From Clostridia bacterium (GTDB lineage: Bacteria > Bacillota > Clostridia > RGIG6154), in NCBI GenBank assembly GCA_017626145.1, contig JAGAJK010000077.1:125077-189076 (forward strand): DNA of 64,000 nucleotides. The letters are read 5' to 3'. Shown here piece after piece: positions 4,579-64,000 of this stretch; the first letter of the stretch is position 1, and each line of letters begins with the position of its first letter. The position numbers and the translations under genes are program-made. A model generated the notes under the pieces. It was given only the letters and a program-made list of their open reading frames with translations. It was not told where the DNA came from and made no database searches.

Positions 4579-7500
4579 ATGGCAAGAAAAATGAAAACCA
4601 TGGATGGTAATAATGCTGCTGCATGGGCGTCATATGCGTTTACCGATGTTGCTGCAATTTACCCCATCACACCTTCATCAGTTATGGCAGAAGTAACAGA
4701 TGAATGGGCTGTTGAAAACAGAAATAATATTTTCGGACAGCCTGTAAAAGTAGTAGAAATGCAGTCAGAAGCAGGTGCAGCAGGTGCTGTTCACGGCTCA
4801 CTTGCAGCAGGTGCACTCACCACCACTTATACTGCATCACAGGGTTTACTTCTTATGATCCCTAATATGTACAAAATGGCTGGTGAATTACTTCCATCAG
4901 TAATTCATGTAAGTGCACGTTGTGTAGCTTCACACGCATTAAACATTTTTGGTGATCATTCAGACGTTATGGCTTGTCGTCAGACAGGTTATGCAATGCT
5001 CTGTTCAAACAGTGCACAGGAAGTTATGGACCTCGGTGCTGTAGCTCATCTTTCAGCAATCAAAGGTAAGGTTCCTTTCCTTCACTTCTTTGACGGTTTC
5101 AGAACATCACACGAAATTGATAAGATTGAAGTTTGGGATTATGAAGACCTTAAGGAAATGGTTGATATGGATGCGGTTAAGGAATTCAGAAATAATGCCC
5201 TTAATCCTGAACATCCAGTACTCCGAGGTTCAGCTCAGAATCCTGATATTTTCTTCCAGAACAGAGAAGCTTGTAACAAGTACTACAATGAAATTCCTGC
5301 TGTTGTTGAAGAATATATGAACAAGGTTAACGAAAAGATTGGTACAAACTACGGTCTTGTTAACTACTACGGTGCTCCCGATGCAACAAAGGTTATCGTT
5401 GCTATGGGTTCAATCTGTGAAACTATTGAAGAAACAATTGACTATATGGTAGCTAAGGGCGAAAAGGTTGGTTTAATCAAAGTTCGTCTTTACAGACCTT
5501 TCCCTGTTGAAGCATTCTTAAAGGCAGTTCCTGCAACTTGCGAAAAGATCGCTGTTATCGACAGAACAAAAGAACCAGGTTCAATCGGTGAACCTCTTTA
5601 TCTTGATGTTTGCGCTTGCTACGCAGGTAATACTAAGGCTCCAATGATCGTTGGCGGTAGATACGGTCTCGGTTCAAAGGATACTATCCCTGCTGATATC
5701 ATTGCAACATACAAAAATCTTGATGCAAAAGAACCTGTTAAGGGCTTTACACTTGCTATCGAAGATGATGTAACAAATCTTTCGCTCCCAAGAGAAGAAA
5801 ATCCTGATACATCAGCTGAAGGTAACACAGCTTGTAAGTTCTGGGGTCTTGGTTCTGACGGTACTGTTGGTGCTAACAAGAACTCAATCAAGATCATCGG
5901 TGACCATACAGATCTTTATGCTCAGGCATATTTCTCCTATGACTCTAAAAAGTCAGGTGGTATTACAGTATCACACTTAAGATTCGGTAAGAAGCCTATT
6001 AAGTCAACATATCTTATCAATAAGGCAAACTTCGTTGCTTGCCACAACCCATCATATGTTGATAAATATGATATGGTAGAAGATATTGTTCCCGGTGGTA
6101 GCTTCCTTCTTAACTGTGCATGGGATGTTGAAGAACTTTCAAAGAGACTTCCTGCAAAAATGAAGAGCTATATCGCTAAAAACAACATCAACTTTTATAC
6201 AATTGATGCTATCGGCATCGCAAAAGAATTAGGTCTTGGTAACAAGACATCAATCGTTCTCCAGTCAGCATTCTTCAAGATTGCAAACGTAATCCCATTT
6301 GATGATGCTGTTGGCTATATGAAGGAAGCTGTTGTTAAGTCCTTCGGTGCTAAGGGTGAAAAGATTGTTAATATGAACCACGCTGCTATCGCAGAAGGCG
6401 AAAAGAATATCAATAAGATTGATGTTCCTGCAGACTGGGCTAATGCTGTTGATGAAGAAAAGAAAGCTAAAGACGTTCCTGATTATATCAAGAATATCTT
6501 AGAACCATGTAATGCTCAGACAGGTGACAAGATTCCTGTATCTAAGTTTATGGGTATGGTTGACGGTCATCTTCCACAGGGTATGGCTGCATACGAAAAG
6601 AGAGGTATTGCAGTAGACGTTCCTGAATGGGATCCTGCAAAATGTATTCAGTGTAACAAGTGTTCTGTTGTATGTCCTCACGCTGCAATCAGACCTGCTG
6701 TATACAATGCAGATGAAGTAGCTTCAGCTCCTGCAGCTACAAAGCACAAGAAGATGATTGGTAAGGGTATGGAAGTATACGAATTCGGTATTATCATTTC
6801 AACTCTTGACTGTAGCGGTTGCGGAAACTGTGCTAAGGTTTGTCCTGCTAAGGAATCTGCTCTCGTTATGAAGCCAATTGATACACAGATGGATCAGCAG
6901 GAAGTATTTAATTATGGCGTTAAGTTATCATTTAAGCCTGATGTACTCGCAGGTCCTCTTAATCCTAAGTCATCACAGTTCCGTCAGCCATTACTTGAAT
7001 TCTCAGGTGCTTGCGCAGGCTGCGGTGAAACACCTTATGCAAAACTCGTTACACAGATTTGCGGTGAAAGAGCTTATATTTCAAACGCAACAGGTTGTTC
7101 TTCAATCTGGGGTGGCAGTGCTCCTTCAACACCATATACAGTAAACCACGAAGGTCATGGTCCTGCATGGGCTAACTCACTCTTTGAAGATAACGCTGAG
7201 CACGGTCTTGGTATGGCTGTAGCTGCAAAGCAGATTCGTACAAGACTTGCAAATCAGGTTGAAGCTATCGACAATGCTGACGTTAAGACAGCTGCTGAAG
7301 CTTGGAAGGCGACTTATGAAGATGGCGATGCTAACGCACAGGCAACTCTCGACCTCATAGCTGCTCTTGAAAAATGTGGTTGTGACGCAGCAAAAGAAAT
7401 CCTTGACTATAAGGAATTCCTTGCTAAGAAAGCTGTTTGGATCTTCGGTGGTGACGGTTGGGCTTACGATATCGGTTACGGCGGTCTTGACCACGTACTC

Positions 7501-8082
7501 GCTTCAGGTGAAGATGTAAACGTATTCGTATTCGATACAGAAGTTTACTCAAACACAGGCGGACAGGCTTCAAAATCAACACCTACAGGTGCTGTTGCTC
7601 AGTTCGCAGCAGGCGGTAAGCCAATCAGAAAGAAAAACCTTGCTGAAATGGCTATGTCTTATGGCTATGTATATGTAGCTCAGGTAGCTCTCGGTTACGA
7701 TCAGGCTCAGACAGTAAAGGCTATTAAGGAAGCTGTTTCATATAACGGTCCTTCATTAATCATCGGTTATGCTCCATGTATCAACCACGGTATTAAGGGT
7801 GGTATGACTGATACTCAGAAGGTTATCGATAATGCTGTTAAAGCAGGTTATTGGCATACATTCAGATTTAACCCTGCTGAAGAAGCTGATATGTTCCACC
7901 TTGATTCAAAGGATCCTACAGAGTCATACAGAGACTTTATTATGAACGAAGTTCGTTACAGCTCACTTGCTCGTAAGTTCCCTGAAAAGGCTGAAGAACT
8001 CTTCACAGAGGCTGAAAAGCTTGCTAAAGAAAAGTACGAACACCTCAAGAAGTTAGGTGCTCTCTACAGCAATAAAGAATAA
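4579..8082 (+). CDS. nifJ: pyruvate:ferredoxin (flavodoxin) oxidoreductase, single-chain PFOR
   Basis: 1167 aa with a PFOR N-terminus (AAAWASYAFTDVAAIYPITPSS). Two 4Fe-4S ferredoxin motifs (CIQCNKCSVVCPHAA and CSGCGNCAKVCPA) and a TPP-binding GDGW motif. High codon bias. Confidence 0.97.
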   Translation: MARKMKTMDGNNAAAWASYAFTDVAAIYPITPSSVMAEVTDEWAVENRNNIFGQPVKVVEMQSEAGAAGAVHGSLAAGALTTTYTASQGLLLMIPNMYKMAGELLPSVIHVSARCVASHALNIFGDHSDVMACRQTGYAMLCSNSAQEVMDLGAVAHLSAIKGKVPFLHFFDGFRTSHEIDKIEVWDYEDLKEMVDMDAVKEFRNNALNPEHPVLRGSAQNPDIFFQNREACNKYYNEIPAVVEEYMNKVNEKIGTNYGLVNYYGAPDATKVIVAMGSICETIEETIDYMVAKGEKVGLIKVRLYRPFPVEAFLKAVPATCEKIAVIDRTKEPGSIGEPLYLDVCACYAGNTKAPMIVGGRYGLGSKDTIPADIIATYKNLDAKEPVKGFTLAIEDDVTNLSLPREENPDTSAEGNTACKFWGLGSDGTVGANKNSIKIIGDHTDLYAQAYFSYDSKKSGGITVSHLRFGKKPIKSTYLINKANFVACHNPSYVDKYDMVEDIVPGGSFLLNCAWDVEELSKRLPAKMKSYIAKNNINFYTIDAIGIAKELGLGNKTSIVLQSAFFKIANVIPFDDAVGYMKEAVVKSFGAKGEKIVNMNHAAIAEGEKNINKIDVPADWANAVDEEKKAKDVPDYIKNILEPCNAQTGDKIPVSKFMGMVDGHLPQGMAAYEKRGIAVDVPEWDPAKCIQCNKCSVVCPHAAIRPAVYNADEVASAPAATKHKKMIGKGMEVYEFGIIISTLDCSGCGNCAKVCPAKESALVMKPIDTQMDQQEVFNYGVKLSFKPDVLAGPLNPKSSQFRQPLLEFSGACAGCGETPYAKLVTQICGERAYISNATGCSSIWGGSAPSTPYTVNHEGHGPAWANSLFEDNAEHGLGMAVAAKQIRTRLANQVEAIDNADVKTAAEAWKATYEDGDANAQATLDLIAALEKCGCDAAKEILDYKEFLAKKAVWIFGGDGWAYDIGYGGLDHVLASGEDVNVFVFDTEVYSNTGGQASKSTPTGAVAQFAAGGKPIRKKNLAEMAMSYGYVYVAQVALGYDQAQTVKAIKEAVSYNGPSLIIGYAPCINHGIKGGMTDTQKVIDNAVKAGYWHTFRFNPAEEADMFHLDSKDPTESYRDFIMNEVRYSSLARKFPEKAEELFTEAEKLAKEKYEHLKKLGALYSNKE

Positions 8083-44485: not shown

Positions 44486-46312
44486 ATGAAAATAAAAAAT
44501 AAAAAACTAAGTTATAAGATGTTAAATAGTTTTTTGCTTACTGTAAGTATGTTGGTTTTTCTGGTTTCTTTTATGTTTGAATCTCCTGTAAGCTCATGGG
44601 TGATTTTATCAGGAATAATAATAAACTGTATTGCAGTTATTCTTCGCATTATGCTTCAGTATACAAAGATGAAGTCTGTAATTTTTGAAGTTACAACTAT
44701 TTTAATTTCTATATATATGTTTTCTTTTGGATATGTTTATCAGGCATATTGGGTAGGTTTGATATCAGTTATATTTTCTTATATAAATCATTCTAATCTG
44801 TTTATTAAACCATTGTTAAATGAAACCTTTTCTAAAATATGCTCTTGTACTTACAGAAGATATTTTAACAGTGATACCGAATTTGTGAATGTTTCTGAAA
44901 TACGTGTTGGAGATTTTCTGCAATTATTTTCCGGTGAAACCGTTCCATGTGATGGTATTGTTAAGGCGGGGTCCGGAACAGTTAACGCAACTTGTGTAAC
45001 CGGAGATAACCGAATATTAAATATAAATAAGGGAGACAAAATTTTTGCCGGATTCACTGTTTTAAGTGGAAAGCTCATAGTTGAATCGACTAATACTGTT
45101 CTTGAAAGCAGCCTTAGTAAAACAATACATTGTGTTATGGATATAAATAAAACAAAAACACCGAAAGAGAAAAAGATATCCGCAATTAGTGTAGTTGTTT
45201 CTTTGGTTTTGTTTGCTGTGTTAGCTATTTTTATACTTGTTTCAGGGATCAGTTCAGAAAACTATGTTTTCATAGCACACTCTTTGCCTCTTTGTCTTTT
45301 GTTTTCATTTGAAATTGCGGGAAGCGGTCTTATTAGTGATATTTATGAATCTGTTGCAGTAAATCTTGCATCTAAAGGTATTGTTGTAAAAAGCAAACAG
45401 TTTATCGAAAATACTCTTGAATTTGAAAATGTAGGGTTTTCAGTCAAAGGAGTTCTCGGTGGTAAAAAGCCATTAATTTCCAATGTGAAAAGTGAATTAA
45501 GCATAACCGAAGATGAGCTTATAAAGGTTGCTGCATACGCACTTTTCAGAACAGGTTCATCAATGGCAAAGGTTATTGTCGCAAAAAGTAATTCAGATAT
45601 CAATATAGCTGATATAAGAGATTTTAAACCGGTAGGTGAATATGGCGGATATGTTAAAATTTGTGGCGATGTTGAAGTTGTGGCAGGAAGTGTCGAAGAT
45701 CTGAATTCTTATGGGATAATTGTAGGACTCGATAATTCAGAAGATACAATTTATATAGGTGTTGATGGCAAATTTGCAGGATTTATACAGTTTGAAACTC
45801 CGTTAAATGAAGACATTTTTCAGTGTATGAATAATTTGAGGTTTGCCGGTATTAAGAATATATTTGTATATTCTCATTGTAATTCAGAAATTGCAAATCA
45901 GATATCTAAAGTGGGTAATCTCAAAGAAGTTAACGGTAACCTTAACGATGATCAGATAAGATATAGATTAAAACAGTTATCAGGCAATACTCTTATGTTC
46001 CGTTACGGAAGTAATTGTGCTGACTATAGTGAGTATGTCAATGAAATAGGCTTTGGAGGTTATGATGTGTTTGACAGGTATGATGCAGTTATTCTTACCG
46101 ACAATTTACTTTCGACCGTCAACTTTGTAAATGTACTAAAGGATGCTAAAGGCTTAATTTTAAAAAACATTTTGATTTCTGTTATAATAAAACTCATTCT
46201 TTTAATTATGTTAATTTTTAATGTTAAGTACGTGTGGCTTGCTGTTATTTTAATTGGAATTTCTTTGTTATTGATGCGTATAAATAATTTAAAATTCAGA
46301 TATAAACTATGA
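44486..46312 (+). CDS. degenerate P1B-type P-type ATPase homolog (all catalytic motifs substituted); predicted non-catalytic membrane protein
   Basis: Four N-terminal TM helices. Actuator-like domain (EIRVGDFLQLFSGETVPCDGIVKAGSGTVNATCVTGDN) with TGDN in place of TGES. TM region with SFE where the CPC metal site would be. GFSVKGVLGGKKP in place of FDKTGTLT. No HP motif. SHCN where TGDN would be. GSNCAD where GDGxND would be. Two C-terminal TM helices. Own RBS. Confidence 0.7.
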   Translation: MKIKNKKLSYKMLNSFLLTVSMLVFLVSFMFESPVSSWVILSGIIINCIAVILRIMLQYTKMKSVIFEVTTILISIYMFSFGYVYQAYWVGLISVIFSYINHSNLFIKPLLNETFSKICSCTYRRYFNSDTEFVNVSEIRVGDFLQLFSGETVPCDGIVKAGSGTVNATCVTGDNRILNINKGDKIFAGFTVLSGKLIVESTNTVLESSLSKTIHCVMDINKTKTPKEKKISAISVVVSLVLFAVLAIFILVSGISSENYVFIAHSLPLCLLFSFEIAGSGLISDIYESVAVNLASKGIVVKSKQFIENTLEFENVGFSVKGVLGGKKPLISNVKSELSITEDELIKVAAYALFRTGSSMAKVIVAKSNSDINIADIRDFKPVGEYGGYVKICGDVEVVAGSVEDLNSYGIIVGLDNSEDTIYIGVDGKFAGFIQFETPLNEDIFQCMNNLRFAGIKNIFVYSHCNSEIANQISKVGNLKEVNGNLNDDQIRYRLKQLSGNTLMFRYGSNCADYSEYVNEIGFGGYDVFDRYDAVILTDNLLSTVNFVNVLKDAKGLILKNILISVIIKLILLIMLIFNVKYVWLAVILIGISLLLMRINNLKFRYKL

Positions 46313-54159: not shown

Positions 54160-54238
54160 AGTAAACAGGATAAGCGTATACTAAGTCCGGCCTTGGTATA
54201 TGTCCCAAATAGAAAGATATGCGGGGGCAGGAGTAACT

Positions 54239-54526
54239 ATGGCACAGCTTGATAAATTAGAGTTATTACTCCCGGTAGGCCTGAAAACAGAGCTCAAAAG
54301 AATTGCAAAAGAAAAAGATAAAGATATTAATGAAATTCTTTGTGATGCTATAAGGTTTTATGTGGGTAAGGAAAAAAAGAAAAATTATAAAGAAGAATTG
54401 AAAAAAGGGTATTTAGAGATGGCACAGATAAATAGTGCCTACGCCGAAATGTGTTTAGATGCTGATAATGAATGTTTATCTGCATGTGAGGAAAAACTTT
54501 CGGAGAGTGAATTAAGTGGTTGTTAA
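54239..54526 (+). CDS. mazE: antitoxin EndoAI (MazE-like)
   Basis: Strong colinear similarity to B. subtilis EndoAI ([24 protein letters not shown]...[24 protein letters not shown]). I chose the start at MAQLDK, which has an AGGAGT RBS. The track ORF starts at 54200. Confidence 0.85.
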
Positions 54527-54860
54527 AAGAGGCGAGATTTATTACGCAGACCTTAGTCCGGTAATCGGCTCTGAACAGGGTGGTATAAGACCGGTTCTTG
54601 TAGTGCAGAATGATGTTGGTAACAAATACAGTCCTACTGTTATTGTTGCAGCTATAACATCGCAGATAAATAAAGCAAAAATGCCTACTCATGTTGAAAT
54701 TGATGCAAAGGAGTATGGACTTGTTAAAGATTCTGTAATACTTTTAGAACAGGTCAGGACTATTGATAAAAAAAGGTTAAAGGAAAAAATCGGAAAAATT
54801 GATGTTGATTTATCCGAAAAAGTCGATGAAGGCTTATTGATAAGCTTTGGTCTTGTATAA
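54516..54860 (+). CDS. mazF: mRNA interferase toxin EndoA (MazF/PemK family)
   Basis: Near-identical in pattern to EndoA ([68 protein letters not shown]). GTG start overlaps the antitoxin stop. Confidence 0.95.
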
Positions 54861-54871
54861 AGAGGTGCTTT

Positions 54872-55294
54872 ATGATAAAAAACAAATTGAAAATAGCTTT
54901 AGTCACGATGGTGCTTTGTATATGTGTAGTTGCTACATATATCGCAAATGCACAGATTGGCAGTGATAGTGATCCTGTCATATCACTAAGCTATTTAAAA
55001 CAGGTTTTCCAGCCGGAAATAACAGAACAGATGTCTTTTAAGGTCGTGTCATTGGAAAATGGTCATACTTTAGAGTGTAGTGCCGGAGCTGAGCTTATCC
55101 TGAGAATGGGAACAGCGAATATAGTAGCTACAACCAAAGGTGGTCTGGCTGATGTTACAGCTGGTTACGACCTTCAAAATGGTGCGTCTATGCCTGCGAA
55201 TCATCATTTGATTGTGCCTGTAGGAGATGGACGTGGTGTAAAAGCAACATCTGACTGTTTGGTTATGGTTAAAGGTGAGTATGAAATTAAATGA
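54872..55294 (+). CDS. hypothetical secreted/membrane-anchored protein
   Basis: 140 aa. N-terminal signal/anchor IALVTMVLCICVVATYIANA followed by a domain of about 110 aa. No motif I recognise. Confidence 0.5.
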   Translation: MIKNKLKIALVTMVLCICVVATYIANAQIGSDSDPVISLSYLKQVFQPEITEQMSFKVVSLENGHTLECSAGAELILRMGTANIVATTKGGLADVTAGYDLQNGASMPANHHLIVPVGDGRGVKATSDCLVMVKGEYEIK

Positions 55295-55297
55295 TAT

Positions 55298-55325
55298 AAA
55301 AACCGCTCAAAAGAGCGGTTTTTAT
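55298..55325 (+). terminator. intrinsic terminator
   Basis: AAAACCGCTC-aaaa-GAGCGGTTTTT. Confidence 0.85.
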
Positions 55326-55353
55326 TGACTTTTAACAAGTAATCTGTTACAAT
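55325..55353 (+). promoter_or_regulatory. sigma-A-type promoter driving the riboswitch leader
   Basis: TTGACT, 17-nt spacer, TACAAT. Confidence 0.55.
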
Positions 55354-55399
55354 ATGTAAGAAAACAGAATAAATTCATACAGAGTGTCGTGTATACCGT

Positions 55400-55590
55400 A
55401 AAACTGATGTTTAGGTATAAACGGTGAAAAGGGAATGAGGTGTGAATCCTCAGCGATAACTGTCGGTGTATGCGTTGAAATTTTTGTATTCGTCGGTGAA
55501 AGCCGGTCATTGGGAAACTGAGAAGGCAGGAAACAAAAGTGTTAGGTCGTTAGCCTTATATAACGCAAGTCACAAGACCTGCTTTGATAT
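55400..55590 (+). promoter_or_regulatory. cobalamin (B12) riboswitch
   Basis: GGTGAAAAGGGAA and GGTGTGAATCC, then ...CTGTCGG..., TCATTGGGAAACTGAGAAGGCAGG and a B12-box-like AGTCACAAGACCTGC. A possible terminator or sequester hairpin (TTATTCC...GGAATAA plus T-run) lies at about 55593-55640. Confidence 0.65.
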
Positions 55591-55792
55591 TATTCCGTAA
55601 TAGATATGCTGCACAGGAATAATGTTTTTATTTGTATTAACTTTAATTGCTTTAAGGATAATTTGGTTACTTTATTACAGATAAAATGTGAATAATCACA
55701 GAAATGACAGCTGTGATAATTTTTAAATTACCATAGCTCTTTTATATTGTAAATTTAAATATGATCGCTTAATAGAAATGGAGGTTGACAGG

Positions 55793-56680
55793 ATGAATGA
55801 ATTTAAGAATTATCACCCTTTTGTGAATTTTATATATTTTATGTTGGTAATAGGTTATACGATGCTTATTATGCACCCTTTGTATCTTGTTGTAGCTTTT
55901 TCTTGTTCTTTTATATATTCAGCTATTCTCGGTGGCATAAAAGTTGTAAAGAAAAATTTGTTTTATATGGTACCGTTGTTACTGATTATGGCTCTTGTAA
56001 ATCCTCTGTTTAATCATAAAGGGGCTACAATCCTTTGGTATTTTCCAAACGGGAATCCTTTGACTTTAGAAGCTGTTATATATGGCATTTTGGCTTCCGT
56101 TATGATAGTTAGTGTAATATGGTGGTTCTCTTGCTTCAATAACGTTATGTCAAGTGATAAATTTGTATATTTGTTTGGCAGAATTGTTCCTTCATTGTCG
56201 CTGATCTTTTCTATGACTTTGAGATTTGTACCAAGATTTTCATATCAATTGAAACGGATTTCTGACTCACAGAGGTGTATTGGCAGAGATATTTCGAAAG
56301 GTGGAATATTAAAACGTATTAAATCGGGACTTTCTATTCTGTCGATAATGACAACGTGGGCTTTGGAAAATGCAGTAGAAACTGCTGATAGTATGAAATC
56401 ACGCGGATATGGATTGAAAGGAAGAACTGCATTTTCAATTTACAGATTTGACAAAAGAGATAAAGTTACATTACTATTAATTGTTTTATTGTCAATATAT
56501 ATTTTTGTTGGTGTTATTTCCGGTAATTTACATTGTAGCTTTTATCCAAATATAAAAATAAGTGGTTATTCATTGTATAATTTAAGTCTATTTGTAATTT
56601 ATACAATATTTTGCATATTACCTGTTATAATTGAATTGTGGGAGGTGAAGAAATGGAAACATACAGAATCGAAAATTTAA
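55793..56680 (+). CDS. ecfT: ECF transporter transmembrane (T) component, EcfT/CbiQ family
   Basis: Multi-TM protein with an EcfT-like C-terminal segment (...RISDSQRCIGRDIS...ILSIMTTWALENAVETADSMKSRGY). I chose the start at MNEFKNY, which has a GGAGG RBS. The track ORF starts at 55778. Confidence 0.8.
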   Translation: MNEFKNYHPFVNFIYFMLVIGYTMLIMHPLYLVVAFSCSFIYSAILGGIKVVKKNLFYMVPLLLIMALVNPLFNHKGATILWYFPNGNPLTLEAVIYGILASVMIVSVIWWFSCFNNVMSSDKFVYLFGRIVPSLSLIFSMTLRFVPRFSYQLKRISDSQRCIGRDISKGGILKRIKSGLSILSIMTTWALENAVETADSMKSRGYGLKGRTAFSIYRFDKRDKVTLLLIVLLSIYIFVGVISGNLHCSFYPNIKISGYSLYNLSLFVIYTIFCILPVIIELWEVKKWKHTESKI

Positions 56681-59340
56681 GCTTTACATATCCCGGAAAA
56701 TCTTATAAAGCTCTTGATAATGTAAATATAAAAATTACATGCGGAGATTTTATAACTATTTGCGGTAAGTCCGGATGCGGTAAAACTACACTTTTGCGTC
56801 TTTTGAAAACTTCACTTGCACCTTGCGGGAAAATCGAAGGCAATATTCTTTTTGATGATAAGGCGTTAGATGAAATTGATACAAGAACCCAGTCTTCGGA
56901 AATAGGATTTGTCAGTCAGAATCCGGATAATCAGATTGTAACAGATATGGTATGGCATGAATTAGCTTTTGGGCTTGAAAGTCTTGGCTATTCTACTCCC
57001 GAAATAAGAAGCAGAGTAGCAGAAATGGCTTCGTTTTTCGGTATTCAGACGTGGTTTAATAAAAAAGTTACTGAGCTTTCAGGTGGACAGAAGCAATTGC
57101 TTAATTTAGCATCTGTGATGGTTATGCATCCATCTGTAATTATTCTTGACGAGCCTACGAGTCAACTTGATCCAATTGCTGCAAGTGAATTTATGAACAC
57201 TTTATCCAAGATAAACCAAGAAACAGGTACGACGGTAATTTTAAGTGAGCACAGACTTGAGGATGCCATTTCACTTTCAGATCGTGTAATTGTTTTAGAT
57301 GAAGGGAAGATTATTGTTGACAGTAGTCCTGAAAATGCAGCTAAAATTTTAAAAAGTATAAATAATGATATGTATATGGCAATGCCTGTTCCTATGAGAA
57401 TTTACGGTACTGTCGAAGGGGGAGATAAGTACCCGCTTACTGTTCGTGATGGCAGATTGTGGTTTGAACAATATGTTAAGGACAATACTGTTACATGTAA
57501 GAAAGCTGTAAAAAAGATAATAGAACATAAATCAGATGAAGCTGTTATTCAACTCAAGGATGTGTGGTACAGATACGAAAAAAACACGCCTGATATTTTA
57601 AAAGGCTTGAATATTAGTGTAAACAAGGGTGAATTTTTCGCAATCCTTGGCGGTAATGGTACAGGAAAAACAACTATGCTGTCGCTAATGAGCGGACTTT
57701 ATAAGCCTTATAGGGGAGAAGTTAAAGTTTTCGGTGAAAAATTGTCAGAAATAGAAAATTTATATACCGATATTCTCGGAGTGCTTCCTCAGGATCCTAA
57801 AACACTTTTTGTGAAAAAAACTGTAAAACTCGACTTGTTGGATATATTGTCAGACAAAAAAATATCAGTTTTACAAAAAGAAGAACTCATAAAAACTGTT
57901 ATTTCACTTTGCAGGATAGAAGAATTAATAAATAACCATCCGTATGATTTATCAGGAGGTGAACAGCAACGTGCAGCACTTGCAAAAATTCTTCTGAAAT
58001 CACCTGAAATTTTAATTCTTGATGAACCTACTAAAGGAATGGACGCACATTTTAAGAAAGAATTCGCAGATATATTAAGTGATTTAAAATCTGAAGGTGT
58101 TACCATTGTTATGGTATCGCACGATATTGAATTTTGTGCAGAAAATGCTGACAGATGTGCACTTATGTTTGATGGGAATATAATATCCTCGGATGAGCCT
58201 GAAGCATTTTTTTCAGGAAAAAGTTTTTATACCACAGCTGCAAATCGTATGGTGCGCTCAGTATTTCCTGAACTGATTCTTGCACGTGATGTTATATATG
58301 CTTGCAAAGGGAATGTTTATGCTACCGATAAACATACTGCTGAAACAGAAAATAAAAAACTTGAATTTAACAATAAAATTGTTGAATCTAAGGGACAAAA
58401 TACAAACAAATCGTTTGTGAAAATCACCTTTGGAACTATATTTTTGCTCCTGTTTATTATTACAACTTCTGCTCAGCTAACTGATATGTATATACCATAT
58501 TTTTCATCTTTAAAGCTGACGAATACTATTGCTTTTCAGTTAATATCAATTGTGGAAATAACAGCGGTTTTGATTTGTTTTTTGCCATCAGGGAAGGTAA
58601 GTAGTCATAAAATTATTCATACCGAATTTAATGGAAATTTATCCAAGAGAAGTATTGTTGCAACCTTTATGAGCCTTTTTGCAGTCCCGCTTACTATATA
58701 CATTGGTATGGTTTATTTTAACGATAAAAAGTATTATTTTATTAGTATGATTATAATTCTTGAAACTATGATGCCTTTTTTAGTGGCATTTGAAAATCGC
58801 AGACCTCAGGCCAGAGAGCTTGTTGTAATCAGTGTGATGTGTGCTATAGCGGTTGCCGGAAGAACTGCCTTTTTTATGCTACCACAGTTTAAACCTGTTA
58901 CTGCTTTAATAATAATAACCGGTGTATGCTTTGGAAGTGAGACAGGCTTTTTGGTAGGAGTTGTTACGGGATTTGTATCTAACTTCTTTTTTGGACAAGG
59001 CCCCTGGACTCAATGGCAGATGCTTGCTTGGGGTTTAATTGGATTTATTTCAGGTGTTTTTTCAAAAACAGGGCTTTTAAAAGTAAATAAGATTTCACTT
59101 TCTCTTTTTGGTGGAATAGTCACATTTGTTATTTATGGAGGTATCATAAATCTTTCTTCGGTATTTATGATGGAGAGCGATCCTTCGATAGAAATGTTTT
59201 TATCTTATTATGTTGCCGGTGCACCCTTTGACTTAATTCATGCTGCATCAACAGCGTTTTTTATGTGGTTTACTTCTGAAACTATGATAGAGAAAATTGA
59301 GAGGGTTAAAACAAAATATGGGCTTGTCGGCAGTAAATAA
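56653..59340 (+). CDS. ECF transporter duplicated ATPase (A-A') fused to a C-terminal S-component-like membrane domain
   Basis: Two NBDs (GKSGCGKTT, LSGGQKQ, ILDEPTSQLD, then GGNGTGKTT, LSGGEQQR, LILDEPTKGMD), followed by about 310 aa with at least 8 TM helices. The last part includes the S-component-like GQGPWTQWQMLAWGLIGF. Start overlaps the ecfT stop. Confidence 0.8.
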   Translation: METYRIENLSFTYPGKSYKALDNVNIKITCGDFITICGKSGCGKTTLLRLLKTSLAPCGKIEGNILFDDKALDEIDTRTQSSEIGFVSQNPDNQIVTDMVWHELAFGLESLGYSTPEIRSRVAEMASFFGIQTWFNKKVTELSGGQKQLLNLASVMVMHPSVIILDEPTSQLDPIAASEFMNTLSKINQETGTTVILSEHRLEDAISLSDRVIVLDEGKIIVDSSPENAAKILKSINNDMYMAMPVPMRIYGTVEGGDKYPLTVRDGRLWFEQYVKDNTVTCKKAVKKIIEHKSDEAVIQLKDVWYRYEKNTPDILKGLNISVNKGEFFAILGGNGTGKTTMLSLMSGLYKPYRGEVKVFGEKLSEIENLYTDILGVLPQDPKTLFVKKTVKLDLLDILSDKKISVLQKEELIKTVISLCRIEELINNHPYDLSGGEQQRAALAKILLKSPEILILDEPTKGMDAHFKKEFADILSDLKSEGVTIVMVSHDIEFCAENADRCALMFDGNIISSDEPEAFFSGKSFYTTAANRMVRSVFPELILARDVIYACKGNVYATDKHTAETENKKLEFNNKIVESKGQNTNKSFVKITFGTIFLLLFIITTSAQLTDMYIPYFSSLKLTNTIAFQLISIVEITAVLICFLPSGKVSSHKIIHTEFNGNLSKRSIVATFMSLFAVPLTIYIGMVYFNDKKYYFISMIIILETMMPFLVAFENRRPQARELVVISVMCAIAVAGRTAFFMLPQFKPVTALIIITGVCFGSETGFLVGVVTGFVSNFFFGQGPWTQWQMLAWGLIGFISGVFSKTGLLKVNKISLSLFGGIVTFVIYGGIINLSSVFMMESDPSIEMFLSYYVAGAPFDLIHAASTAFFMWFTSETMIEKIERVKTKYGLVGSK

Positions 59341-59361: not shown

Positions 59362-60132
59362 ATGGGAAAATTTGACGGATATTTGATATGTTCAGATTTA
59401 GATGGAACATTTAGAAATAAAATTGATATTGAGCCAAACTTACGGGCTGTAAAATATTTTACTGATAATGGCGGTAAGTTTACATTCGCAACAGGCAGAA
59501 CTGTATCGCATCTTGAAAAATTAAATTATAATCATATTATTAACGCACCTGCCTGTATCTGTAATGGTGCAGTTGTTTATGATGGCACAACTCAAAAAGT
59601 TCTTCGTGAAGCACGTCTTGAATTTAAGGTGATGGATTTTATTGATGTAATAAAAAGATATAATGGAAGCATTCAGGGGGTAAGTATATACAACAGCTGC
59701 TTTGAGGATGAATATAATTGCCGGGAAATTAATAGCATTTCAAACGATATAATGTGTTTAAATCCATTAAAAATTGTATGTGTTTTTTTGACACCTGAAG
59801 AAACGGAAGAATTTAAAAATTTTGCAAGAAATGAATATTTATTTGAAACCAGCTATATAGGCAGATCCTGGAGTACAGGTGTAGAATTTAACTCAATTAA
59901 TGCAACTAAAGGATGTGCTCTTGATTTTATTAAATCACAACTTGATAACATCCACACCACTATTGGAATCGGTGATTATGAGAATGATATTCCGCTTCTT
60001 AGTCATGCAGATATAGGTGTTGCTGTAAACAATGCCTTAGAAATAGTAAAGAGCTCTGCAGACATAATGGTTAAACCTTGCGAAGAATCTGCTGTTGCTG
60101 ATTTAATAAGTATACTCGACAGTAAAATTTGA
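59362..60132 (+). CDS. Cof-type HAD-IIB family hydrolase
   Basis: Motif I (ICSDLDGTF), motif II (FTFATGR) and motif IV (GIGDYENDIPLLSHADIGVAVNNA). Confidence 0.8.
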   Translation: MGKFDGYLICSDLDGTFRNKIDIEPNLRAVKYFTDNGGKFTFATGRTVSHLEKLNYNHIINAPACICNGAVVYDGTTQKVLREARLEFKVMDFIDVIKRYNGSIQGVSIYNSCFEDEYNCREINSISNDIMCLNPLKIVCVFLTPEETEEFKNFARNEYLFETSYIGRSWSTGVEFNSINATKGCALDFIKSQLDNIHTTIGIGDYENDIPLLSHADIGVAVNNALEIVKSSADIMVKPCEESAVADLISILDSKI

Positions 60133-62669: not shown

Positions 62670-64000
62670 CTATTTTAGATTTTCAAGTGAGTTTTTTGCA
62701 CTTTCTACAGATAAATTATATCGTTGCCATCTGGATGGAATTTGAGAATTAGTATTATTAATAAGAAAATTTTTAATGCGTTCTTTTAAAGCTAAATCAT
62801 TTGTATTTCTGTATAAATATTCCAACGGTTTAGAGGCATCGGCTGAAAGGGTAAATACATAGTCAATGCTTTCTCTTTCTCCGTTGAGATATTTATTTAT
62901 CTGGTTTTGTGCAATAATTGTATCTGTAGGTAACAAATTCAAAAATAAGTAATATGCAAGTGAGATGCAGAGATAAATTAAAGTTATATTAAACTGCGGT
63001 TTAGCTATATAAAAATATGTAACAATAAGTCCAATAGTTTCAAATACTAAAAATAACATAACAAAGGTTCTCAGTCGAGTCAGTCCGTCATCGTTAGTAT
63101 AAAGCCACATGCGATAAAATGATGAAATAAGTAATATCATTGTTATACTGCACATATAGTGGCATAAGAATTTAGTAACGATTGCCCAGATTCCGCGGCT
63201 TTGTTTTGTAAATTGAACTGAAGCGAGAATTCCTATAATATTAATTACAGTCAACAAAAGTAATTCGAAAAAACCTTTTCTTGCATATTCTGTGTATGTA
63301 AGATTGTTGGGGAGTTGAGTGCCGGCAAACAAGTACTTAAATTGAATTACAACAAATGCAGTGTATATTGTCAGAAGTACTGTAAGCAGTATGTTTATTA
63401 TAATTAAATCGCCACTACATTCCATAGGCTTGATATTCTTGATTTTATCATCACGATTATAAGTACTATAAATAACACCAAATGCATATAATCCGGTTAT
63501 AATTCCGCATATTATAAGAAAAACAGTGTGTAAGTTTATTTTGCTGAATATGTTTTTTATAAAGGCTTCGGCTTTTAATGAGAAAACCATATCGGCATTA
63601 GCGAGAATCAATGTCAGGAATATGGCACACGGAAGTGCCAGCACTAAAGCCATCGCTATTCTTTTTAACACTGTTGTTTTAGTAGTCCCTATTTTAAATG
63701 CCCATTCAAAAGGTAATTTAAAATAGTTAAAAGGAGATAAAATTTTTCTTGTGATATCTTCCAGATAAACAGTTGTATCAACTTTAAAATTAAATTCTTG
63801 CGATATACATGCAAATAACGCAAGGCATATTATCAAATTTGTTAATTTCCATATTTCGTTTGCACTTATAAATGAATTTAGTGACATAATAAATATTGGC
63901 AAGAAAGTTATAATTGTTTTTTTACCGGGTATAAAAAAACGTGCAAATGAAAATTGTATTATTACAAAAATAACCGGACCGATACCTGAATTTTCCGGCA
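62670..64000 (-). CDS. polytopic membrane protein (DUF4153-like), N-terminus beyond the window
   Basis: More than 10 TM helices. The reading frame stays open upstream of the track's first Met, through 64000. Confidence 0.55.
   Translation of the reverse strand, partial: PENSGIGPVIFVIIQFSFARFFIPGKKTIITFLPIFIMSLNSFISANEIWKLTNLIICLALFACISQEFNFKVDTTVYLEDITRKILSPFNYFKLPFEWAFKIGTTKTTVLKRIAMALVLALPCAIFLTLILANADMVFSLKAEAFIKNIFSKINLHTVFLIICGIITGLYAFGVIYSTYNRDDKIKNIKPMECSGDLIIINILLTVLLTIYTAFVVIQFKYLFAGTQLPNNLTYTEYARKGFFELLLLTVINIIGILASVQFTKQSRGIWAIVTKFLCHYMCSITMILLISSFYRMWLYTNDDGLTRLRTFVMLFLVFETIGLIVTYFYIAKPQFNITLIYLCISLAYYLFLNLLPTDTIIAQNQINKYLNGERESIDYVFTLSADASKPLEYLYRNTNDLALKERIKNFLINNTNSQIPSRWQRYNLSVESAKNSLENLK

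Follow-up and report, generated by a model that had tools for sequence, protein, structure and literature searches.

A 64,000-nucleotide stretch of contig JAGAJK010000077.1 from a Clostridia bacterium (assembly GCA_017626145.1, positions 125,077 to 189,076 of the forward strand; hereafter the window) carries a cobalamin riboswitch followed by two overlapping genes, one for a probable T component of an energy-coupling factor (ECF) transporter and one for a single protein in which two ATPases (A and A') continue into a substrate-capture (S) component. We consider it very probable from the homologies of these parts that the locus encodes a riboswitch-repressed corrinoid importer, corresponding to a dedicated group I system of the CbrV/CbrU-CbrT type in which cbrU and cbrT have been joined. 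A first-pass annotation had proposed a B12-dedicated, CbrT-type ECF importer, and this proposal is now supported by a match to the riboswitch model RF00174, by homology to CbrT and by the ECF character of the ATPases. The T and A-A'-S genes lie together in one operon, which places the module in group I.

The assignment of the substrate-binding part was based on the C-terminal membrane domain of the fusion protein. Both hydropathy and an AlphaFold2 model (predicted local distance difference test (pLDDT) 84, predicted template modelling score (pTM) 0.78) indicated ten membrane helices over ~310 aa, four of them ahead of the S-like part, in agreement with the earlier description. The last six helices form an integral-membrane domain with the six-helix S-component fold and matched PF07155 with 36.8 bits (cutoff 26.7). 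The only significant match in the PDB was chain A of 6FNP, the ECF-CbrT complex of Lactobacillus delbrueckii, for which transport of cobalamin and cobinamide has been demonstrated (Santos et al. 2018, PMC5997447). Its E-value was 2.8e-12 for the sequence alone and 1.2e-13 when a 67-sequence profile was used, and the alignment spanned residues 6-178 of the 182 in the chain at 28% identity; the next S-component, 4HZU_S, gave E-values of 6.1 and 0.013, respectively. Comparison with 13 Lactobacillales CbrT sequences using hhalign returned a probability of 98.9% (E=1.2e-17, 169 columns), and the CbrT-invariant motifs PxxQ/KPV, SNxxxGxGxWTxxQ and FDxxHA are invariant in the fusion family too. The segment GQGPWTQWQMLAWG, which had first drawn attention to the S-like character of this region, is part of the second of these motifs and sits in the block where conservation across the family is highest. 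An AxxxA motif, which in helix 1 of S-components serves docking on EcfT (PMC11109136), can be recognized at the sequence level in helix 1 of the S domain as A731-x-x-x-A735 within CAIAVAGR (aa 730-737), and family members show little or no variation at the nearby A165, G170 and R171 (domain numbering). These comparisons identify the last six helices as a specific homologue of CbrT, an experimentally proven B12 S-component.

The remaining subunits were assigned from family models and motifs. The open reading frame (ORF) of the fusion protein occupies 56638-59340 (+) and encodes the 900 aa noted in the first-pass annotation when read from a GTG at 56638, but the true start is likely the ATG at 56653, which is preceded by GGGAGG (GGAGG 8 nt upstream) and yields 895 aa. 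This shorter version is the public one (NCBI MBO5454356.1, from a metagenome-assembled genome, 'MAG: Clostridia bacterium'), where it is named only 'ATP-binding cassette domain-containing protein'. As had been claimed, the protein contains two complete ABC nucleotide-binding domains, both matching PF00005 and each with Walker A, signature, Walker B and H-loop motifs, and it also matched TIGR04520 (ECF_ATPase_1) with 367.5 bits (cutoff 315) and TIGR04521 with 337.7 bits (cutoff 330). The T gene, which the fusion gene overlaps by 28 nt, begins at an ATG at 55793 with GGAGG 8 nt upstream; the alternative start at 55778 used in the NCBI record gives 300 aa. Its product matched PF02361 (CbiQ) with 34.3 bits against a cutoff of 25, in line with the EcfT-like component already suspected here, and no NCBIfam model; the second Ala-Arg-Gly motif in the coupling helices is present as SRG (aa 203-205). 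In almost all of 80 related loci from species-representative genomes, the gene immediately preceding the fusion gene encodes a T homologue (48-63% identity), and T followed by A-A'-S is an almost universal order.

An Rfam scan of the whole window revealed a single cis-regulatory RNA, a cobalamin riboswitch aptamer (RF00174) that aligned to the full model (1-189) with a score of 54.0 bits (gathering score 31.5; E=1.2e-10) and whose 3' end lies 192 nt before the T gene. The B12 box, AGTCACAAGACCTGC, occupies 55568-55582 and aligned to the conserved model block AGCCAGGAGACCuGCC. The riboswitch and B12 box recognized from the letters in the first-pass annotation are thus confirmed by the covariance-model scan that had been suggested as a check on them.

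The front half of the membrane domain, left unexplained in the first-pass annotation, is not a single unit: helices 1-2 are a variable add-on, and helices 3-4 belong to the conserved S core. Helices 3-4 are conserved to the same degree as the S core, with P113, T115, G119, Y129, F143 and E148 (domain numbering) among the invariant residues, and the consensus of these helices plus the basic stretch ahead of S helix 1 is LSKRT...IPLTI..G...LNDRKYYFISLLIIIETMIPF.M.FE.RKPQARE. They are also found in stand-alone proteins of 235-250 aa annotated as 'ECF transporter S component' in Clostridium bornimense, Hathewaya histolytica, Paenibacillus, Ectobacillus and others. Because helices 3-4 are conserved and are kept in these stand-alone proteins, the alignments indicate that the family core comprises eight helices and that Lactobacillales CbrT (165-182 aa) is a short six-helix form. 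Helices 1-2 are poorly conserved, with 32-44% identity in relatives or no BLAST match, and the spacer between the end of the second nucleotide-binding domain and helix 3 is bimodal in fused proteins, measuring 27-58 aa in 18 loci and 90-138 aa in 57. The short-spacer class lacks helices 1-2, has total lengths of ~775-850 aa and includes three Paenibacillus species and Lachnospiraceae MD329; the long-spacer class has helices 1-2, like the protein of the window. The loops at aa 644-664 and 714-720 are basic.

The four front helices could alternatively constitute a separate functional domain, for example one on which B12 docks from a DUF4430/CbrS protein, or a fused accessory resembling CbiN. The S-core-like conservation of helices 3-4 and the invariant Glu and Pro in helix 4 favour such a domain; these two residues, which are membrane-embedded, also speak against helices 3-4 serving simply as a spacer. 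A membrane-anchored DUF4430 protein is, in addition, encoded in the operon of 57 of the 80 relatives. However, the protein of the window keeps all four helices although there is no DUF4430 gene in the 64 kb, lactobacilli possess CbrS yet lack the extra helices, and helices 1-2 are dispensable in 18 fused loci. Searches of the front region against Pfam and NCBIfam found no family, only a match to PF03596 (E=0.0018) under its cutoff, and hhalign gave a probability below 1% for a relationship to the S core or within the region itself. We therefore regard a separate domain as unlikely. Two specific identities for these helices were rejected, namely CbrS itself, since the lactobacillar CbrS proteins are DUF4430 proteins of 136-149 aa and the front 130 aa have no PF14478 match, and an internal duplication of the helices or of the S core (hhalign, 0.1-0.4%).

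The genes that accompany the transporter in relatives bear on its substrate. In 57 of the 80 loci T is immediately preceded, at a gap of <=10 nt, by a DUF4430 gene whose product is membrane-anchored with DUF4430 at the C-terminus (e.g., L004:997-1899, L048:981-1916 and L072:1039-1962). DUF4430 is the family of lactobacillar cbrS, found in the cluster nrdJ-cbrS-cbrT-pduO, and forms the C-terminal domain of vertebrate transcobalamins (PMC4350170). In loci L020, L055 and L086 the DUF4430 gene is replaced by one for a CobA/BtuR corrinoid adenosyltransferase, with diol dehydratase genes nearby in L086. The DUF4430 and BtuR associations therefore support a corrinoid substrate independently of the riboswitch. 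In another relative (L084, 1-7814), additional giant SLH-anchored DUF4430 surface proteins are encoded upstream and the operon contains a MatE gene. A tblastn search of the window with 11 DUF4430 proteins found no credible DUF4430 gene across the 64 kb; weak matches at 7438-7572 (E 0.3-4) are spurious and fall inside a 1167-aa ORF (4579-8082) that we take, from its sequence, to encode pyruvate:ferredoxin oxidoreductase. The window thus represents a minimal operon class that lacks a partner gene and has housekeeping genes as neighbours.

Within the corrinoids, the transporter might be specific for a cobamide other than cobalamin or for a corrinoid that is incomplete (cobinamide, cobyrinic acid a,c-diamide or pseudo-B12), with helices 3-4 adapting the binding site to that ligand. 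A review lists cbrUVT under 'cobyrinate diamide uptake' (PMC8123684), CbrT of L. delbrueckii carries cobinamide too (PMC5997447), and the S domain, besides being only 28% identical to that CbrT, has two extra conserved helices absent from lactobacillar CbrT. Against this stand the riboswitch, which senses the finished cofactor class, and the partner genes of the relatives (DUF4430/transcobalamin-like and BtuR), which act on complete corrinoids, so that we consider such a preference improbable.

The leader between the aptamer and the T gene contains four hairpins, H-A to H-D, which are common to eight aligned leaders. H-A has an 11-bp outer stem and a minimum free energy (MFE) for the whole fragment of -17.6 kcal/mol (z=-2.1); it is kept in seven relatives, with compensatory changes in five pairs and an invariant TTTT after it. 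In H-B, compensatory changes were seen in seven of nine pairs of the RNAalifold consensus of the eight leaders. H-D of the window has an MFE of -10.9 kcal/mol (z=-2.2) with one A.C mismatch, as compared with -18 to -25 kcal/mol in relatives, and its terminator (T2) ends ~40 nt 5' of the ribosome-binding site, which is left unsequestered. From H-C through the 5' arm of H-D runs a nearly invariant block of ~40 nt (AATGTGATTCATCACAGAAAAACTCAGCTGTGGTAATTTTT in relatives), whose nucleotides hardly vary although the encoded proteins are only ~60% identical. Comparison of the block with Rfam in E-value mode produced chance matches only (E>4), and its identity with a known RNA family was accordingly rejected. 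A metagenome scan with the block revealed nine further loci, seven of which have an RF00174 aptamer just upstream; the gene that follows is T in L092 and L095, and by sequence reading encodes a CbiK-like lipoprotein in L093, a LicD-like protein in L090 and small secreted proteins elsewhere. As the block recurs behind RF00174 before other genes, it is a clade-wide expression platform of B12 riboswitches and not peculiar to this operon. Tandem terminator-like hairpins with the block were observed in the window (55586-55749) and in L016, L019, L029, L033, L040, L042, L055, L086 and L087-L095.

We also considered whether the riboswitch acts translationally, or as an ON switch, rather than by premature transcription termination. 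H-A overlaps the 3' side of P1 as assigned by Rfam, and under this assignment a ligand-stabilised P1 would compete with the terminator. This P1 is, however, mostly non-canonical here and probably misassigned, the leader has two conserved units of hairpin plus T-run with the ribosome-binding site free behind the second, and a transporter that brings in the sensed ligand would be expected to be shut off by it. The chance that control is translational or positive therefore appears slight.

The arrangement of ATPases and S-component in one chain was examined in public assemblies and in relatives. An identical 895-aa protein occurs on seven contigs from NCBI, Logan and ENA, and the best 120 homologue clusters (90% identity) are all 876-901 aa long with 99-100% query coverage, at 58-63% identity except for the near-identical P0122; the search of other assemblies for a split ORF, proposed in the first-pass annotation, thus found it unsplit. 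The gene is fused in 75 of the 80 related loci, isolate genomes included, and in 72 of these the ORF is complete. Four relatives, L033, L066, L072 (Lutispora thermophila) and L074 (Bacillus sp. REN16), have a cbrU-like gene (550-575 aa) apart from a cbrT-like one (241-357 aa) and keep the three genes in the same order, and one further locus is cut by a contig end. An exhaustive search with the eight-helix core yielded 2474 clusters (50% identity, E<=1e-3); when a full A-A'-S fusion was scored wherever the core started beyond residue 535, fusions numbered at least 72 among the 150 top representatives at 50% identity. An assembly or sequencing artefact joining cbrU and cbrT, for which the separate genes of the four split relatives might speak, is refuted in practice and has next to no probability, given the identical protein from three sources, the full-length clusters, the 72 complete fused ORFs in different species and a linker that stays in frame without any sequence conservation. 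The fusion is genuine and is the dominant architecture of the subfamily, and the earlier view of an A-A'-S fusion as unusual does not hold.

Most fusions come from Clostridia (Oscillospiraceae, Monoglobaceae, Peptococcaceae and others) and Paenibacillus, with cultured Paenibacillus and Sporobacter among the hosts. Since both size classes contain split and fused forms, fusion or fission has occurred more than once. One locus (L071, JAITCR010000088.1) from a MAG labelled 'Nitrososphaerota archaeon' has a DUF4430-T-fusion operon 56-60% identical to the Clostridia ones and is most likely a binning contaminant, not an archaeal instance. Further architectures of the eight-helix core include a class of free-standing proteins of ~440 aa (P0405, P0412, P0481 and P0483) with a ~200-aa N-terminal multi-helix extension lacking a Pfam match; these are a genuine free-standing class and not truncated fusions, save for P0404, which is a fragment. 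P0434 (1263 aa) has three matched ABC stretches ahead of the eight-helix core, and P0451 (463 aa) a C-terminal extension of ~220 aa that looks extracellular. The full-text literature searched, outside of which Rodionov 2009 lay, described neither an A-A'-S fusion nor the extra helices; the one relevant statement was that, in general, subunits of ECF transporters are 'sometimes fused into multidomain proteins' (PMC12075633).

From these features we propose the following mechanism. Abundant intracellular cobalamin would bind the aptamer, and transcription would then stop at T1 or T2; when B12 is scarce, the T and fusion genes would be transcribed and, through their 28-nt overlap, translationally coupled. 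The CbrT-like domain would capture the corrinoid outside the cell, the S domain would topple against the T scaffold and release it inside, and binding and hydrolysis of ATP by A-A' would reset the complex. Throughout, the S domain would remain leashed to A' by the flexible linker of ~30 aa and helices 1-2. The even number of extra helices would keep its N-terminus cytoplasmic, like that of free S-components, and helices 3-4 may belong to the working S core in Clostridia and Bacilli.

Several observations weigh against a riboswitch-repressed corrinoid importer of this kind. The first Ala-Arg-Gly motif of the T coupling helices is degenerate (IGRD), identity to CbrT is as low as stated above, and the exact corrinoid preference cannot be read from the sequence. 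In the Rfam scan of relatives, which covered 41 related genome loci, RF00174 lay directly 5' of T in 10 of the 12 operons starting with T and upstream in one of the two starting with btuR (L055), as well as in L086 (btuR-T-fusion), but in only one of the 24 operons starting with DUF4430 (L034), within the ~1 kb available upstream. In all, the arrangement of the window recurs in 12 related genome loci and in L086. Riboswitch control is hence typical of operons that start with T and not universal in the family. In the window, the Rfam P1 has many non-canonical pairs and shares its 3' strand with H-A, and the OFF logic of the riboswitch is inferred by analogy rather than derived from structure. 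Finally, confidence is low across aa 560-760 (pLDDT 33-70), in the membrane part of the full-length AlphaFold2 model, and domain docking is unreadable from it.

Coordinates of the features discussed above, and of the elements flanking the leader, are collected in Table 1. The terminator of the preceding gene isolates the B12 operon from transcription coming from upstream. The TTGACT/TACAAT promoter named in the first-pass annotation is present next to it and is plausible by its position only, because matches to the promoter consensus in this AT-rich region are no commoner than in shuffled sequences (19 observed versus 21 expected).

Table 1. Features of the putative corrinoid importer locus (nucleotide positions in the window; aa, residues in 895-aa numbering)
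Feature	Position	Strand	Basis or detail
Intrinsic terminator of preceding gene	55296-55325	+	13-bp stem, 5 GC pairs, then T-run
Candidate sigma-70 promoter, TTGACT/17 nt/TACAAT, extended -10 TG	55325-55353	+	10/12 consensus positions
Cobalamin aptamer RF00174, including B12 box	55385-55600	+	Covariance model, full-length
Hairpin H-A and U-tract (terminator-like, T1)	55586-55634	+	Directly 3' of aptamer; hairpin proper 55586-55626
Hairpin H-B	55627-55685	+	T1 U-tract 55627-55635 pairs with ACAGATAAA 55677-55685
Small hairpin H-C, TGTGA/TCACA	55687-55700	+	Opens nearly invariant block; alignment and RNAalifold
Terminator H-D/T2, AGCTGTGATAATT...AATTACCATAGCT plus CTTTTATATT	55709-55749	+	Hairpin proper 55709-55738; sequence-conserved
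T component, 295 aa; EcfT/CbiQ family, CbrV from its position	55793-56680	+	PF02361
ATPase domain 1 (A)	56653-57492	+	PF00005, TIGR04520; GKSGCGKT, LSGGQ, VIILDEP, SEHR
ATPase domain 2 (A')	57523-58317	+	PF00005; GGNGTGKT, LSGGE, ILILDEP, VSHD
Flexible polar linker, ~30 aa (aa 556-585)	58318-58407	+	pLDDT 30-42 in full-length model; unconserved in alignment
Membrane helices 1-2 (aa 586-643), optional add-on	58408-58581	+	Hydropathy, AlphaFold2 helices
Helix 1	aa 586-610		
Helix 2	aa 625-643		
Membrane helices 3-4 (aa 665-713), conserved two-helix module	58645-58791	+	pLDDT 86-93
Helix 3	aa 665-689		
Helix 4	aa 694-713		
Six-helix CbrT-like S-component domain (aa 716-890)	58798-59322	+	

Upstream of the operon and next to the riboswitch promoter, the gene at 54872-55294 (+) encodes 140 aa, with a signal or anchor at the N-terminus, and ends in a strong terminator. 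Its secreted product, which does not belong to DUF4430, was rejected as a substitute for CbrS, as it has no Pfam match at E<=0.1 and the terminator parts it from the operon. A gene for a MazF/PemK-type toxin (54516-54860 (+), PF02452, E=2.8e-38) overlaps a 108-aa ORF (54200-54526) that probably encodes its antitoxin, the pair (54200-54860) lying between alr and the B12 operon. Downstream, 22 nt after the fusion gene, a Cof-type HAD hydrolase is encoded at 59362-60132 (+) (PF08282, E=1.4e-32) with its own GAGG ribosome-binding site. Because no terminator intervenes, it is probably co-transcribed and thus under riboswitch control here; a role as part of the transport system was rejected, a homologue being present in none of the 80 loci. 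Farther away, a DUF4153 membrane protein (62670-63902 (-), E=2.1e-64) lies downstream of an amino-acid ABC transporter, and the sole match of a 608-aa ORF (44486-46312 (+)) is to the E1-E2 ATPase actuator domain of P-type ATPases.

Among known systems, the ECF-CbrT complex of L. delbrueckii shares with the window the six-helix S fold, the invariant motifs and a T scaffold with two ATPases, and its DUF4430/CbrS partner family recurs in the relatives of the window. CbrT of L. delbrueckii is, however, a group II protein, a free 182-aa S-component that shares a general EcfAA'T module with other S-components and exchanges on it (PMC12075633), whereas the module of the window is dedicated and encoded in the same operon, its ATPases form one chain and its S domain is covalently attached. 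The S domain of the window further differs in having two conserved and two variable extra helices, and its expression is riboswitch-controlled, in contrast to the L. delbrueckii system, which lies in an nrdJ-pduO cluster. A predicted dedicated cobalamin ECF system (Rodionov et al. 2009) has been named CbrUVT or CbrTUV (PMC6593275, PMC8123684). It resembles the locus described here in bringing together the genes for a dedicated T component, a duplicated ATPase and a CbrT-type S-component, and differs in that a single ORF combines cbrU and cbrT in the window and in 75 of the 80 relatives. Rodionov et al. reportedly associated CbrUVT with B12 regulation. BtuM, a solitary S-component-like B12 transporter, works without an ECF module (PMC6072759), whereas the window has a full module fused or adjacent; there is no significant similarity between the two, BtuM being absent from the PDB sequence matches. 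The cobalt transporter CbiMNQO (group I) likewise has a dedicated module in one operon, but its substrate and S family are different and its ATPases are unfused to the S unit. CbiMNQO requires a two-helix accessory, CbiN; the extra helices of the window, by comparison, have no detectable similarity to anything.

Taken together, the locus is an under-described variant of a known B12 uptake system, abundant in databases and uncharacterised. B12 uptake in Gram-positive anaerobes is poorly mapped, and the locus can now be confidently annotated as a corrinoid importer. A smaller novelty may be the clade-wide expression platform, in which two tandem terminators accompany the nearly invariant block of 40 nt. 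In the ECF field it is disputed whether the S-component must depart in each cycle, and release and exchange have been argued to be integral using the free CbrT of L. delbrueckii, with comparison to group I systems explicitly requested (PMC12075633). We suggest, tentatively and as something we ourselves hold to be doubtful, that in most members of the subfamily the S domain is permanently leashed to the ATPase and complete S release or exchange cannot belong to the cycle. If true, toppling with a short-range 'expulsion on a leash' may suffice, or helices 3-4 may give a distinct, non-dissociating coupling, and in either case a single-chain A-A'-S with T would offer a means of deciding between 'fixed' and 'dynamic' models of subunit composition. 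The fusion fixes a 1:1 stoichiometry, which is handy for cryo-electron microscopy, and split (L066, L072 and L074) and fused systems, as well as those with and without helices 1-2, offer natural comparisons. As the only solved CbrT lacks helices 3-4, present structural views of how ECF transporters capture B12 may miss a part in most Clostridia and Bacilli.

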